DNA from: Bacillota bacterium
GTDB taxonomy: Bacteria > Bacillota > SHA-98 > Ch115
Direction: 5' to 3'
Length of the DNA stretch: 44,868 bases
NCBI GenBank assembly: GCA_012842565.1
Contig: DUSO01000037.1
Coordinates: 1-44,868, forward strand
A program made the position numbers and the translations under genes. This document shows, in pieces, positions 11,150 to 15,655 of the stretch. The notes below the pieces were generated by a model. It was given only the letters and a program-made list of their open reading frames with translations. It did not search any database and had not been told where the DNA came from. Each line of letters begins with the position of its first letter. Positions within the stretch are counted from its first letter, which is position 1.

Positions 11150-12670
11150 TTAGCCCGGCGCCGGGCTGGGGCCTGGTCCTGTCCTCTCCAACAACGCCAC
11201 AGACTCCACGTGCGAAGTCTGCGGGAACATGTCTACAGGCTGGATCACTCTCACCCGGTAGCCGGACAAAGTGAGCCGTTCGAGGTCGCGGGCGAGGCTC
11301 GCGGGATTGCATGATACATAGATAATGCGGGGAATCCCGGCTCTCGAAGACGCCTCGACCACAGCCCTGTCACACCCCGACTTGGGGGGGTCAAGCACCA
11401 GGACGTCGACCTTTACCCCCTGTTCGAGGAGTTGCCCCAGCGCCGCGGCGGCATCCCCCTGGAGGAATTCCACGTTATCTATGTGGTTCAAACCCGCGTT
11501 GACGCGCGCATCCTCTATGGCTGAAGCCACGGCCTCCACGCCATAAGCCTTTTTGACCCTTTGGGCGAGAAAAAGCGTTATGGTGCCGACGCCGCAATAG
11601 AGGTCAAGGGCGACCTCATTGCCAGATAAACCTGCGAACTCAACGACTTTGCGATAGAGTACCTCCGCCTGTGCTGGATTGACCTGGTAAAAGGACCCGG
11701 CTGATATCCTGAAACGGAGCCCTCCCAAGACGTCTTCGATGTGATCCTTCCCCCAGAGCACCCTGAAACGGTCGCCGAGGATGACGTTTGTACGCCGGGT
11801 GTTGATATTCTGGACGACAGAGCACACGGCAGGAATAGCATCGTGAAGGGATTTGCCCAAGGCCTCGCCATGAGGGAACCCCTCCCCGTTGGTGACAAGG
11901 ACCACCATGGCCTCGCCGGTAAAAAAGCCTATCTTGATTATGACGTGCCGGAGGAAGCCCTCTCCCGTCTTCTCATCGTAAGCCTCGAGCCCTGCCTGTC
12001 CGGCCAGGGCCAGCGTCTCCCGCAGGATCATGCCTGAAAGCGGGTGCTGTATCCGGCAATCCTCACAGGGCACGATTACATGGGTCCCCCTGGCATAAAA
12101 GCCGCCTACGAGGCCCTTTCTTTCTCCTGTGAGGCCCTTCCCCTTTTGTGCGGTCCTTTCCCTCTCAATACGGCCTCCGAGCACCCTACCGGGCCCCGCT
12201 CCAGCCACTGCTACGGACTTCACAGGGTACTGCGCCTTGTTGCGATAGCGCCACGGCTCCTCCATCCCCATCGTGGGCTCGACCCTGATCCCCTTGAGAT
12301 GTCCGATGCGCTCCAAGGCATCGGTCACCAGGCGCCGCTTGAGCTCCAACTGTTCACTGTAGTCCAGGTGCTGCAGCTGGCATCCCCCGCACTCGCCAAA
12401 CACCTGGCATACCGGGGATGTCCTGGCGGGCGAGGGAATCATGATCTCTAATACCTGACCACGCCCATAATTCTTCTTTACCGTCGTTATCCTGGCGCGT
12501 ACCCTCTCGCCAGCCAGCGCCCCGGGGAGAAAAAGGGCGAAGCCGTCTATGCGGGCAACGCCCTCACCCTCGTGGTTTAACCCGGTCACACTGACCTCTA
12601 TAGTCTCACCATGTCTTACCGGAGGTACAAGCCTAGATGACCGATTCAAGCTCGTAGAATTCGAGTCCAT
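11150..12670 (-). CDS. rlmD: 23S rRNA m5U1939 methyltransferase (TRAM domain and 4Fe-4S cluster)
   Basis: TRAM domain, [49 protein letters not shown]. True start may be TTG 12649. Confidence 0.92.
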
Positions 12671-13748
12671 GTGCTTCCGCGACGCCCCTGTGGACTATCT
12701 TGCCGCCCACAACATTTACCCCGCGGGCAAGCGCCTTATTCTCTTTGATAGCCCTGATATATCCCTTATTTGCGATCTCCAACGCATAGGGTATCGTTAC
12801 ATTGGTCAGCGCATACGTAGATGTCCGGGCTACAGCTCCCGGCATGTTCGCGACCGAGTAGTGGATTACTCCGTATTTCACATAGATCGGGTCGCTGTGA
12901 GTGGTAGGGTGGTCGGCAGTCTCGACACATCCTCCCTGGTCAACAGCGACATCTACGATTACAGAGCCCGGCTTCATCTGCTTTACCATGGACTCTCTGA
13001 CGAGCTTCGGGGCTCTTGCCCCGGGAATCAGCACGGCCCCGATCAGTAGGTCTGCGTATCTAACTGCCCTCTCGATATTGTAGCTATTGGACATTACAGT
13101 TATAACATTCCCGTGGAGTATCTCATCGAGATACCGGAGGCGGTCCGCGTTCTTCTCGATTATGGTCACATGAGCACCCATTCCTATTGCGATCTTGGCG
13201 GCGTTGGTGCCGACGGTACCCCCGCCGATTATGACTACCTCGGCCGGGGGCACGCCGGGAACGCCACTCAGGAGGATGCCCCTGCCTCCGTGGATATTCT
13301 CGAGGTATTGAGCCCCGAGCTGCACGGCCATGCGACCTGCTATTTCGCTCATGGGCGTGAGGAGCGGGAGCGCCCCGCTATCCAGCTGGACGGTTTCATA
13401 GGCAATGGCGACTGTCCTGGATTTCATCAGTGCCCTGGTGAGTTCTTCGCTGGCAGCCAGATGAAGGTAGGTAAAGAGCACCTGTCCCTCGTGTAAGAGG
13501 CTATATTCCTGCGGCAAAGGCTCCTTGACCTTGAGGATCATCTCCGCGGCCTCATACACGGCCCGGGCATCCTTTACCAGGTTCGCGCCTGCCTCTGCAA
13601 ATGCCGTGTCGGGAATGCCACTTCCCTCACCTGCCCCGGACTCAATTATGACTGAATGGCCCGCTCTTCGAAACTCTTCGACTCCTGCCGGAGTGATGGC
13701 TACCCGGTTTTCATTGTCTTTTAGCTCCTTCGGGACCCCAACGATCAT
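12633..13748 (-). CDS. ald: Alanine dehydrogenase
   Basis: [55 protein letters not shown]; GGAGG RBS before ATG 13748. Confidence 0.96.
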
Positions 13749-13826
13749 CCTGACCTTCCTCCCATGAGCCATGATACCCGCCGTATAAGGCAAGTGATGC
13801 TGCCATGAGACGACACCCATACTAAC

Positions 13827-13853
13827 GTTCGACGGTATCTCTCATGTTCCTCC
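13827..13853 (-). promoter_or_regulatory. Sigma-H-like promoter of ald-rlmD
   Basis: GGAGGAAC-N12-GTCGAAC on the minus strand. Confidence 0.5.
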
Positions 13854-13947
13854 TTGTCACCGGGCGAGCCATCCGGGCCAGGCACGAGGGTCAATATGGC
13901 AAGTCAAATCCCGGCGGTTGCTCTCTGAAGGAGGGACCCTCTAAACC

Positions 13948-15060
13948 CTAAACCCGCTTCCCTGCCAGCCGGGCTACTTGAGACAGATCCTGAATCAATT
14001 CCTTGAGCGCCAGCTCCACCAATTCAGGATCGGGGTTCGGGCATTCCGCTTTGCCTTCGTGTATTCTCATTACGAGCCCGTCAGCCCCGGCAATGATAGC
14101 TGCCTTTGCAATAGCGGGAGCAATGTTGGCTGGACGCCCCGTGCCCGGGGCTCCCGCTCCGGACCAGGCGCATGACCCACCTTCCGCAAGCCGGGCGTAG
14201 GGTAATCCAACTATAAGCGGGAGGGAGCAGAGACTCTTGGCTGTCGCGACAGCCACCAGGTCAGGTGCCCCGGCCGGGTCCCGGAGACCCACAAAAGCAG
14301 TATCTTCATATAAGACTACGTTGCAATTGCCTCCCGACACAATACAATCAGCAGCTTCCAGCCATTCCTCTATCCCATGGGTGCCCCCGCGGGCGAGCAA
14401 CACCGGTTTCCCTGCCCCTATGACTGCATGAGTCATATCCTGGCTTGCCAGGTCGTGCGCGCTGACCTCCAGGACATCCGCATAGTCTTCGACCGCTGCA
14501 ATATCCCCGGGGCTTTGGACTCCTACTACCACTGCAAGCCCCGTCGCCCGAGAGACCTCCGCCAGCACCTTCATCCCGCCCAGGGAGACCCCCACAGCTC
14601 CGGGCCCTGCGGCACCACCGGCGCCCTTAACTGCCGCAGCTGCCCCATCTTCGGGCCCCACATGATTACCGGCATAGGGCCCGCAGTATATCCCGGTGCA
14701 GCCGGCCCCCAGGAGAGCCTCCGAGATTGCCACAAGGAAGGACCTATTCTCGTATTCTGCGGCTGGCAGCGGCCCTGCCATATAGACCAACTCGTTCCCG
14801 CCTATCGAGACATCCAGGAGCGCTTCCCGGATAATCTGCCGGGCGGCCCCTATCATACTCTCTGCACCGAGGAGCGATTCGAGACTTGTGCCTATATACT
14901 CCGAGTCCTGCGGCTTCGACTGCCTTAACCTGACTGCACATCTCCTACGGGCCATATCACCCCTCCCTCTACCAGGCCTTGCTATGGCCTCATCACCATT
15001 AGCCCCCAAGTCGTGGCATTTCATATCATAGTAATCCTTAAAAGATAGGCATCCTTGCAC
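13948..15060 (-). CDS. Class I-beta DAHP synthase-like protein with degenerate active site (probable pseudoenzyme)
   Basis: Scaffold motifs retained (VSIGG..LVYMAGP, GKPVLL.RG, IEEWLEAA, GN.NVVL, LPLIV, AAIIAGADGL), but catalytic and metal-binding motifs are replaced. Candidate starts GTG 15060 and ATG 14955 both have GGAGG. Confidence 0.8.
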   Translation of the reverse strand: MQGCLSFKDYYDMKCHDLGANGDEAIARPGRGRGDMARRRCAVRLRQSKPQDSEYIGTSLESLLGAESMIGAARQIIREALLDVSIGGNELVYMAGPLPAAEYENRSFLVAISEALLGAGCTGIYCGPYAGNHVGPEDGAAAAVKGAGGAAGPGAVGVSLGGMKVLAEVSRATGLAVVVGVQSPGDIAAVEDYADVLEVSAHDLASQDMTHAVIGAGKPVLLARGGTHGIEEWLEAADCIVSGGNCNVVLYEDTAFVGLRDPAGAPDLVAVATAKSLCSLPLIVGLPYARLAEGGSCAWSGAGAPGTGRPANIAPAIAKAAIIAGADGLVMRIHEGKAECPNPDPELVELALKELIQDLSQVARLAGKRV

Positions 15061-15196
15061 GGACACTCCCTCCCAATATGGACAAAATCCAAATATACAA
15101 ACAAAACCCAAACCCGGTTCACCGGTCGAGCATAGGCCCTCCTCAGCCCGGGACCCCATCCCGGCCCAGGGCGTTCTCGGGGGATTACGCCCTGGT

Positions 15197-15232
15197 ACAA
15201 ACCAAGCTCCCGCCCCGGAAGGGACGGGAGCT
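15197..15232 (-). terminator. T-box intrinsic terminator
   Basis: AGCTCCCGTCCC-TTCC-GGGGCGGGAGCT followed by TGGTTTGT. Confidence 0.8.
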
Positions 15233-15613
15233 ACTTGCTCTCGTGGTACCACCCTACTTGACCTGTGCTAAGTGCCGGCCCGGCGCCTGCCGTCCCCGGG
15301 ATCTGTCCGGGAAACCCCACACCGGTCCCGCTGTAATCGCCGCTCGCAACACAGGTCCGCTCATGCCAGGTACGGGGCGCGCGAGCCACCCGATACCCGC
15401 TTTCATATAACGGTGAAAGTGCCGGCCCAGCCTACTTGCCCCGCACCGGTCACACCATTCAACCAGCCTTCTGGTCAAGGGTTGAACCAGCCATTCGAGG
15501 TTTCAGCCGGCGGCTCCCGGGAGAACTTCGCCCGACCCGCCCGTACCGCACTTGCACCTGACCGCGGCTCTCTATACGTTAGACTCGGGCTACTTTTCCC
15601 GTTCAAAGCCTTT
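15197..15613 (-). ncRNA. T-box riboswitch, probable Phe (UUC) specifier
   Basis: Stem I (GGCTTTGAACGGGAAAAGTAG...AGAGAG...GGTGCAA...GAAGTTCTCCCGGGAGCC), Stem II with GAAA/AGTA, IIA/B CCGTTA, Stem III GACCTGTG/CACAGGTC, T-box AAGTAGGGTGGTACCACG with CGTCCC antiterminator partner. Specifier at 15523-15525. Confidence 0.9.
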
Positions 15614-15655
15614 CTCTCGACTCCGCTTGTTGGGATGCCAGTATTGATTTATTTA

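Follow-up and report, generated by a model that had tools for sequence, protein, structure and literature searches.

A probable phenylalanine-type T-box leader ahead of a selected, non-catalytic DAHP synthase paralogue in a Bacillota genome

Why should a riboswitch that senses the charging of an aromatic tRNA be kept in front of a DAHP synthase homologue whose catalytic motifs have all been replaced? [quoted passage not shown] DAHP synthase is the gate of the shikimate pathway, and psi would represent a dead copy of it that has long been kept under a Phe-sensing riboswitch. An initial annotation of this DNA had proposed that regulation by aromatic amino acid starvation was kept while the chemistry was lost, and both halves of this proposal held, as the leader reads as a Phe T-box and psi retains none of 12 metal and substrate sites. 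That the locus combines a Phe T-box with a non-catalytic paralogue under selection is in our judgement very probable; the explanation as a whole, in which psi is a pseudoenzyme regulator induced by Phe starvation, we regard as evenly balanced between right and wrong. The features on which the argument rests are the following:

15217..15615, minus strand: T-box leader, full-length match to RF00230 (model positions 1-219; 88.3 bits, E 1.4e-19)
15522..15529, minus strand: 3' side of the specifier loop, GAA-G-UUC-U, with the specifier UUC (Phe) at 15525..15523
15238..15255, minus strand: T-box sequence AGGGUGGUACCACGAGAG, with the UGGU bulge at 15251..15248
15195..15232, minus strand: intrinsic terminator including its tail, with a 12-pair stem at 15232..15205 (nine G-C pairs) and the U-rich tail UGGUUUGUAC
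13948..14955, minus strand: psi, a 335-residue non-catalytic class I-beta DAHP synthase paralogue
14955..14953, minus strand: ATG start codon of psi, behind the Shine-Dalgarno (SD) sequence GGGAGGGG; the TAG stop codon is at 13950..13948

According to the open reading frame (ORF) listing, positions 13948..15252 of the minus strand form one open frame of at most 434 codons. Besides the ATG listed above, a GTG start at 15060..15058 behind GGGAGGGAG would give the 370 residues of the protein database entry P0001, and the two starts thus account for the uninterrupted ORF of 335 to 370 codons that had been described initially. The shorter form is taken as the psi protein because its orthologue P0121, found in the genome G001, begins at the position of the ATG. 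None of 20000 shuffled versions of the ORF stayed open, and codon usage is gene-like in the psi frame only, which scores as coding with 0.324 bits per codon (18th percentile of the 807 long ORFs of the genome), as compared with -0.78 and -0.67 for the other two frames.

The protein is homologous to the class I-beta DAHP synthases (Thermotoga maritima 1RZM, Aeropyrum pernix 1VS1 and the AroF of the same organism) over the whole (beta/alpha)8 barrel. It matches Pfam family DAHP_synth_1 (PF00793) with 51.1 bits (E 1.2e-13; cut-off 25.5) over profile positions 75-261 of 270, and a two-member psi profile aligned by hhalign to 57 DAHP synthases gave a probability of 99.9 over 245 columns (psi residues 46-334); the closest solved structures are I-beta enzymes, 1vs1 (E 5.7e-21) and 1rzm (E 5.8e-13). 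Its scores remain far below the NCBIfam equivalog cut-offs, with 93.7 versus 335 bits for NF006421, 82 versus 267.75 for TIGR01361 and 75.7 versus 279 for NF009239. In the MAFFT and hhalign alignments the motifs AGPC, LRGGAFKPRT, IGAR and KRG have become AGPL, IYCGPYAGNH, VSAH and ARG, and CERG, DPSH, EVH and SDG have become YEDT, GLPY, RIH and PNP. A pairwise HMMER alignment to 1vs1, which set AGPCS on CGPYA, was rejected for the MAFFT/hhalign register, which is supported by the orthologue; the first two motifs, which it places otherwise, are lost under either placement.

PMC6362186 gives as the 12 functional sites the metal ligands C, H, E and D, the phosphoenolpyruvate (PEP) contacts R (LRGG), K (KPRT), Q (LQIG), R (GAR), K (KRG) and R (CERG), and the erythrose 4-phosphate (E4P) binders R and T of KPRT. 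By this list psi keeps 0 of 12 sites and P0121 2 of 12. At the metal positions psi has L63, Y253, R297 and N307 (0/4) and the G001 protein S, M, N and D (1/4, depending on the alignment), and of the eight PEP and E4P sites psi keeps none and the G001 protein one (the R of PAR). Two loops moreover carry inserts specific to the genome of the window (G000):

14574..14655, minus strand: insert 1, G/A-rich, G000 only, about residues 101-127 VGPEDGAAAAVKGAGGAAGPGAVGVSL, at the former KPRT substrate loop
14130..14195, minus strand: insert 2, G/A-rich, G000 only, about residues 254-275 ARLAEGGSCAWSGAGAPGTGRP, directly after the former DPSH metal loop

Of the N-terminal ferredoxin-like (FL) allosteric domain, psi is missing the first half or more. 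Its residues 1-45 are aligned by MAFFT to the second half of this domain, are left unaligned by hhalign and have no PF18152 match in Pfam, so that a domain remnant at this place is suggestive only. Judged from its residues, psi is a homologue and not an isofunctional member of the class I-beta DAHP synthases, and is not expected to make DAHP. The initial reading of the protein (a retained I-beta scaffold, the replacement of each listed motif, lost chemistry) was borne out throughout, and the active enzyme that it had suggested to look for is present: AroF, encoded on contig C14 of G000, scores 284.9 bits, carries all motifs and a complete FL domain, and its gene sits beside those of an AroH-type chorismate mutase (aroH), tyrA and pheA. 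The pheA gene, which encodes prephenate dehydratase, has its two parts at the ends of different contigs (C14:44-337 and C195:112-384), which is a break of the assembly and not of the gene.

The leader is complete, as had been stated from the letters alone: it contains all parts of a transcriptional T-box, namely a Stem I with K-turn, a specifier loop of AGUA and a GAA S-turn, a distal loop and an AGAGA bulge, the F-box CCGUUA, the T-box sequence and a terminator that overlaps the 3' half of the antiterminator, making the two structures mutually exclusive. A consensus fold of the Stem I of three homologous leaders (G000, G001 and G003, the latter from the same order) has 32 predicted pairs, 14 of which show compensatory change. 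The RF00230 match was obtained at an E-value threshold and lies below the gathering score of 93 bits, at which Rfam finds nothing in the window. Seven of the 11 T-box matches of G000, including those before ileS, valS, leuA, ilvB and trpE, likewise score under 93 bits because of long insertions (T-box lengths of 330-426 nt), so that most T-boxes of this organism would go unnoticed in a default Rfam annotation. None of these 11 matches precedes pheS. Outside the genomes, a 1620-nt contig from a subsurface metagenome (run X2) matches the leader region 15369-15613 at about 87-94% identity; 54-55 nt at 15444-15499 are replaced by other letters and the contig ends before any gene, and it may represent the leader region of another relative.

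Which tRNA is read can be answered from the other T-boxes of the same genome. The psi leader reads GAA-G-UUC-U-CCCGGGAG and the ileS leader of G000 reads GAAG-AUC-A-CCCGGGAG; these identical flanks place UUC (15525..15523) in the codon position. The ten other T-boxes of G000 have the specifiers UCC (serS), CCC (proS), UGG (a trpB-like gene, a membrane protein gene and trpE), UGC (cysE), CUC (leuA and ilvB), AUC (ileS) and GUC (valS). The UGGU bulge pairs with the tRNA 3' end ACCA, and the single tRNA-Phe(GAA) of G000 carries A73; the fourth base of UGGN follows the discriminator elsewhere in the genome, with UGGC for G73 at serS and UGGA for U73 at cysE. In two T-boxes with a Trp specifier (G000:C149:5487-5834, L005, and one on G000:C90, L007) the bulge is UGGU, which against the G73 of both tRNA-Trp genes implies a G-U pair; at trpE the bulge is UGGC and fits G73. 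Downstream of the second of them (G000:C90:19355-19746) lies the gene of a 192-residue membrane protein with several helices that falls into no obvious family and is a candidate component of a tryptophan transporter.

The base that follows the specifier, U 15522, is the one odd position of the loop, since all ten other G000 leaders have a purine there, and it is the starting point of a rival reading in which the leader senses another tRNA (Val via GUU in a 7-nt register, or Ser or Leu via UCU or CUC) and would have no tie to aromatic starvation. This U could pair with an A of the 5'-side loop, shifting the register to GAA-GUU-C; the consensus fold does pair columns 19 and 96 in two of the three sequences, and A73 is also found in tRNA-Val and tRNA-Leu. 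An identical UUC-U loop recurs, however, in G001 and in all three metagenome contigs retrieved with a Stem I plus specifier pattern, so that U 15522 does not look like decay, and in two of these contigs (L038 and L039) the loop stands in front of intact DAHP synthases. The leader of G003, which precedes an intact DAHP synthase as well, has UUC-G with the canonical purine, which breaks the proposed pair. The valS T-box of G000 uses GUC, each of the ten other T-boxes matches the codon of its gene in the same register or one base shorter, and the lineage of the controlled gene is aromatic. We therefore hold a tRNA other than tRNA-Phe to be highly improbable. The initial annotation had read UUC in the glyQS register, matched UGGU with an A73 tRNA and given GUU (Val) as the less likely specifier, and on all three counts the comparisons with the ileS, valS and G003 leaders, the intact genes behind UUC-U and the A73 of tRNA-Phe agree with it.

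Whether psi is maintained or merely decaying was addressed with P0121. G001, which belongs to a different genus, is the only species genome besides G000 by which the family is represented in the collection. P0121 has 295 residues and shares 37% identity with psi (106 of 283 aligned positions); its gene is preceded by a T-box (84.3 bits) with a specifier loop identical to that of the psi leader, a strong clean terminator, an SD sequence and ATG. Both frames are open and every gap between them is in frame, so that the stops and frameshifts that had been named beforehand as the signs of decay were not seen in this relative. The proportions of differing sites are 0.447 for nonsynonymous (pN) and 0.783 for synonymous sites (pS). 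The AroF pair of the two genomes, 82% identical, has a pS of 0.878, from which it follows that silent sites are saturated between G000 and G001. Under this saturation the nonsynonymous distance (dN) is 0.68 for the psi pair versus 0.13 for the AroF pair, that is, the psi protein diverges about five times as much, yet stays short of saturation.

When neutral drift was simulated in a simple way at 0.5 hits per site, the psi frame was still open in 7 of 5000 runs, and at 1.0 hits per site it was so in none of 5000; together with the shuffled ORFs, this indicates that a freely drifting psi would not have stayed open. Seventy-five strongly conserved columns of the DAHP synthases were compared: 22 are kept in both proteins, 21 are kept in one, 25 have changed differently and seven share the same new state (Q to E, C to Y, R to D, I to A, D to G, G to P and one shared gap). 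These seven columns suggest that catalytic loss predates the split of G000 and G001 and that the gene has been kept since. Among near-identical strains in other public runs, seven differences were found in the psi ORF, four of them synonymous (0.26 being the fraction expected by chance), and the three nonsynonymous ones all fall in the G000-only inserts, with V121A and G126D in insert 1 and G273R in insert 2.

It could still be argued that psi is a non-functional relic, a dying isozyme that happens to be open behind a T-box that is cheap or has not yet degraded. All catalytic residues are gone, substitutions accumulate about five times as fast as in AroF, the inserts are of low complexity, three of seven strain differences alter the protein, and the family is tiny in a setting where at least 12 other motif-poor DAHP synthase-like proteins indicate frequent loss. 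But two lineages with saturated silent sites keep open, in-frame and alignable ORFs with SD sequence and start, which the simulation at one hit per site did not once reproduce; pN is lower than pS, codon usage is that of a gene, and the leader combines compensatory changes with an invariant specifier loop. The relic is thus improbable. Open in-frame ORFs and pN below pS, rather than a dN/dS ratio, support the retention of psi under purifying selection in two genera, and the initial preference for a pseudoenzyme over a decaying pseudogene is strengthened by an orthologue behind the same leader.

A maintained gene may also have acquired another task, and the columns just described bear on this second rival, in which the psi barrel is neofunctionalised and carries a new ligand or active site, as an enzyme or sensor for a non-phosphorylated aromatic intermediate or Phe, alone or with a partner that is not AroF, for example AroH or PheA. 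The orthologues share new polar residues at strand ends (LEV with Q to E, L-Y-E-D with C to Y and R to D, and GAPDL), both retain the R of ARG/SRG, and the pocket has gone from strongly basic to neutral or acidic, a non-random direction. AroH-type chorismate mutase and PheA are present in G000, and according to PMC2494555 T-boxes mostly govern enzymes and transporters of the cognate amino acid. On the other hand, a new residue is common to both proteins in only seven of the 75 conserved columns and 25 have changed differently, the active-site loops of the two orthologues carry unrelated indels that a conserved new site would hardly tolerate, and neither family nor fold evidence points to a new ligand. 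We consider a new site unlikely, and return to psi as a non-catalytic partner of the pathway.

The origin of such a gene is best approached through relatives in which the enzyme is intact. In G003, a UUC leader of 90.6 bits (contig C14 of that genome) precedes an intact 352-residue DAHP synthase with FL domain, and in G002 the same gene stands at the end of a contig (C23). L038 and L039 carry UUC-U leaders of 122.1 and 125.5 bits before their intact enzymes, and in G037, a member of the same phylum, a Tyr (UAC) T-box of 70.7 bits (L018:805-1048) precedes another intact FL-domain DAHP synthase; the base after its codon is C, again a pyrimidine at the supposedly conserved purine position. These T-box-controlled enzymes of the Bacillota belong to the same barrel superfamily as psi and share its leader class, with a near-identical Stem I base and specifier loop GAAGUUC(U/G)CCC and with UGGU, as well as its logic, in which a pathway-entry protein is induced by an uncharged aromatic tRNA. 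They differ from it in keeping AGPC, KPRT, GAR, KRG, CERG, DPSH, EVH, SDG and the whole FL domain, where psi has 0 of 12 sites and at least half of the domain is gone.

A second degenerate gene stands behind a leader of this class. On a metagenome contig of 65% G+C (L040:406-1628, minus strand), a full T-box of 101.5 bits with UUC-U and UGGU precedes a 277-residue DAHP synthase-like protein that has no FL domain, keeps 3 of 12 sites by reading of the alignment and is 73% identical to P0197. In this pair KPRT is gone, and GAR has become GAH, K has become Q or H, CERG CETG, DPSH YPCY or YPRH, and EVH QVH; the metal Cys, the R of LRGG and the Asp are retained. The changes Q to E and R to H are common to this pair and psi. 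The L040 lineage is only 28-30% identical to psi, and since the trees do not join the two, its catalytic loss is probably independent. It thus resembles psi in the UUC-U and UGGU T-box class and in motif loss, and differs in its three kept sites and the complete lack of an FL domain.

All seven crude motifs are carried by 182 of the 269 collected proteins. Besides psi, at least 12 full-length DAHP synthase-like metagenome representatives taken from the profile matches are without most catalytic motifs:

Motif-poor proteins: P0141, P0147, P0150, P0152, P0173, P0179, P0188, P0192, P0197, P0203, P0234 and P0256

They show, for example, AGPF or AGPY for AGPC, the loss of KPRT, and DPTN, DPSQ or DPGR for DPSH; several keep the FL domain, and P0173 has a chorismate-mutase-like tail. 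When P0234 was compared with 401 genomes of the phylum (G000 included), the best match had 46% identity and no informative context. Because the motif-poor proteins scatter among intact enzymes in a quick tree of 36 rows, catalytic loss in DAHP synthase paralogues seems to be recurrent, with at least two lineages, psi and L040, under a Phe leader. In a tree of 19 rows psi groups with the T-box paralogue of G002 and G003 (94/100), in a quick tree of 28 rows it falls into a set of ten rows together with aroF types (98 by the Shimodaira-Hasegawa-like approximate likelihood ratio test), and a careful tree of 28 rows, in which the bootstrap had not converged, leaves a placement beside AroF unsettled; psi branches are 5-10 changes per column long. 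The simplest history would be that a Phe-controlled isozyme lost its chemistry in an ancestor of the family of G000 and G001 and has been kept since.

Close relatives of psi itself are few. A word-indexed search of 5.8 billion clusters returned only psi above 30% identity, and the same search with P0121 only P0121 at E <= 1e-20. A two-sequence profile run against 1.84 billion representatives gave two matches below 1e-30, psi and P0121; the next scored 101.9 bits, and the nine next-best matches inspected were ordinary DAHP synthases with intact motifs. Peptide-pattern scans of genome contigs (80 stretches) and metagenome contigs (397 stretches) brought no psi relative, and of the 41 genomes compared as relatives, G000 among them, psi is present in G000 and G001 only. 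Two matches in G040, at 33-39% identity, were rejected as ordinary DAHP synthases within a trp/aro cluster.

How could a protein of this kind act? In the mechanism that we propose, uncharged tRNA-Phe would bind the leader with its anticodon GAA on UUC and its ACCA end on UGGU, the antiterminator would form, and psi would be transcribed. Made under Phe limitation as a non-catalytic subunit, psi would then join AroF via the conserved paralogue interface, and its presence in AroF oligomers would change AroF activity or feedback inhibition. The FL domain mediates allosteric feedback in the DAHP synthase of T. maritima, which is the basis for the feedback step, and altered feedback would be expected because hybrid oligomers would be without part of the paired allosteric domains. 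Co-assembly with AroF is the likeliest mechanism, though still a somewhat doubtful one. It draws on a predicted complex of AroF and psi, which scored 0.87 in three of three runs as compared with 0.01 for the best of three controls; 58 of 80 solved complexes and 2 of 110 mismatched pairs had attained this mark in the calibration. Between runs, at least 83% of contacts are the same, the predicted local distance difference test (pLDDT) value is at least 69 for the partner and about 70 for psi, and the predicted interface lies on equivalent helices of AroF and psi. On psi it comprises residues 191-196, 228-241, 272-290 and 326-330, including the blocks GAPDLVA and IAKAAIIAG, which are the blocks best conserved between psi and P0121. 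Identity between these two proteins is 16/36 at the interface versus 68/253 in the rest of the barrel (Fisher p 0.048).

Several points weigh against psi being a maintained regulator of AroF. The high complex score may be a memory of solved DAHP synthase homo-oligomers, expected for any such paralogue, so that the model shows likeness and not that psi binds AroF, and the identity between psi and AroF is no higher at the interface (12/36) than elsewhere (74/253; p 0.70). Psi is known from two genomes only, both metagenome-assembled. Its very fast evolution and the low-complexity G/A-rich inserts of G000 fit strongly relaxed constraint. The initial annotation had suggested orthologues and dN/dS as the measure of selection; the orthologue was found and pN is lower than pS, but the ratio itself cannot be quantified with a saturated synonymous distance (dS). 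The strain sample is tiny (binomial p about 0.08 for four synonymous changes in seven) and has little weight. The protein trees disagree on the active parent lineage and no donor is assigned. The neighbours of psi differ between G000 and G001, so that the conserved unit is leader plus gene and synteny offers no clue to function. Finally, contigs of RNA library X3 cover pieces of the psi ORF and leader and those of library X6 the leader only, which is a hint of transcription and not proof.

Parts of this arrangement have parallels elsewhere. There is ample documentation from eukaryotes, and from a few bacterial pathways, of dead paralogues that regulate their active counterparts; HisZ, an inactive paralogue of histidyl-tRNA synthetase (HisRS), regulates HisG. 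In Trypanosoma brucei, the prozyme of S-adenosylmethionine decarboxylase (AdoMetDC) is, according to PMC5201418, an inactive paralogue that regulates the active enzyme. Prozyme and HisZ resemble psi as dead paralogues kept by selection beside an active enzyme and in hetero-oligomer action, which for psi is only predicted, and they differ in having no riboswitch induction. T-boxes control aminoacyl-tRNA synthetases, biosynthetic enzymes and transporters, and rarely a regulator such as anti-TRAP, a small zinc-ribbon protein that acts on pathway control by binding another protein. The anti-TRAP gene of Bacillus subtilis (rtpA) is under a Trp T-box according to PMC2494555. There too, a protein without enzymatic function is switched on by a T-box for an uncharged aromatic tRNA and acts through binding (for psi, binding is only proposed), but anti-TRAP is unrelated to any pathway enzyme, whereas psi is a full-size dead copy of the first enzyme of the pathway.

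Full-text searches, with supplementary T-box catalogues outside their scope, found no paper on a dead DAHP synthase paralogue or a T-box-controlled pseudoenzyme. New here are the G001 orthologue behind an identical specifier loop, and the presence of this T-box class before intact DAHP synthases as well as a second degenerate one. Psi and the L040 lineage together suggest a recurring coupling of tRNA charging to the allosteric control of pathway entry. A stronger version, in which Phe starvation makes psi through the riboswitch and psi frees AroF, the only DAHP synthase, from Tyr/Phe feedback, in an arrangement that arose more than once (psi and L040/P0197), is a speculation that we think is probably not correct. 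If it were true, carbon would enter the shikimate pathway even though another aromatic amino acid is abundant. In automatic annotation, genes of this kind are labelled DAHP synthase or hypothetical protein and the leader is overlooked at the Rfam default threshold, with the consequence that a non-existent isozyme is counted in pathway reconstructions of uncultured Bacillota.

Downstream of psi, an alanine dehydrogenase gene, ald, occupies 12633-13947 of the minus strand (TIGR00518, 557 bits), with a likely start near 13748, about 200 nt after psi. The stretch from the psi stop codon to ald showed no terminator-like site, for which reason read-through from the T-box unit into ald is possible in G000. 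Ald was rejected as a member of a conserved unit, as G001 lacks it and has a convergent GlcD-like gene at this place. Upstream, the leader is separated from the start codon by the following feature:

14956..15194, minus strand: spacer of about 240 nt from the terminator to the ATG, as compared with only about 30 nt in G001

The spacer has no Rfam family match; it contains the in-frame GTG at 15060..15058 with its own SD sequence and a weak terminator-like hairpin at 15066..15049.

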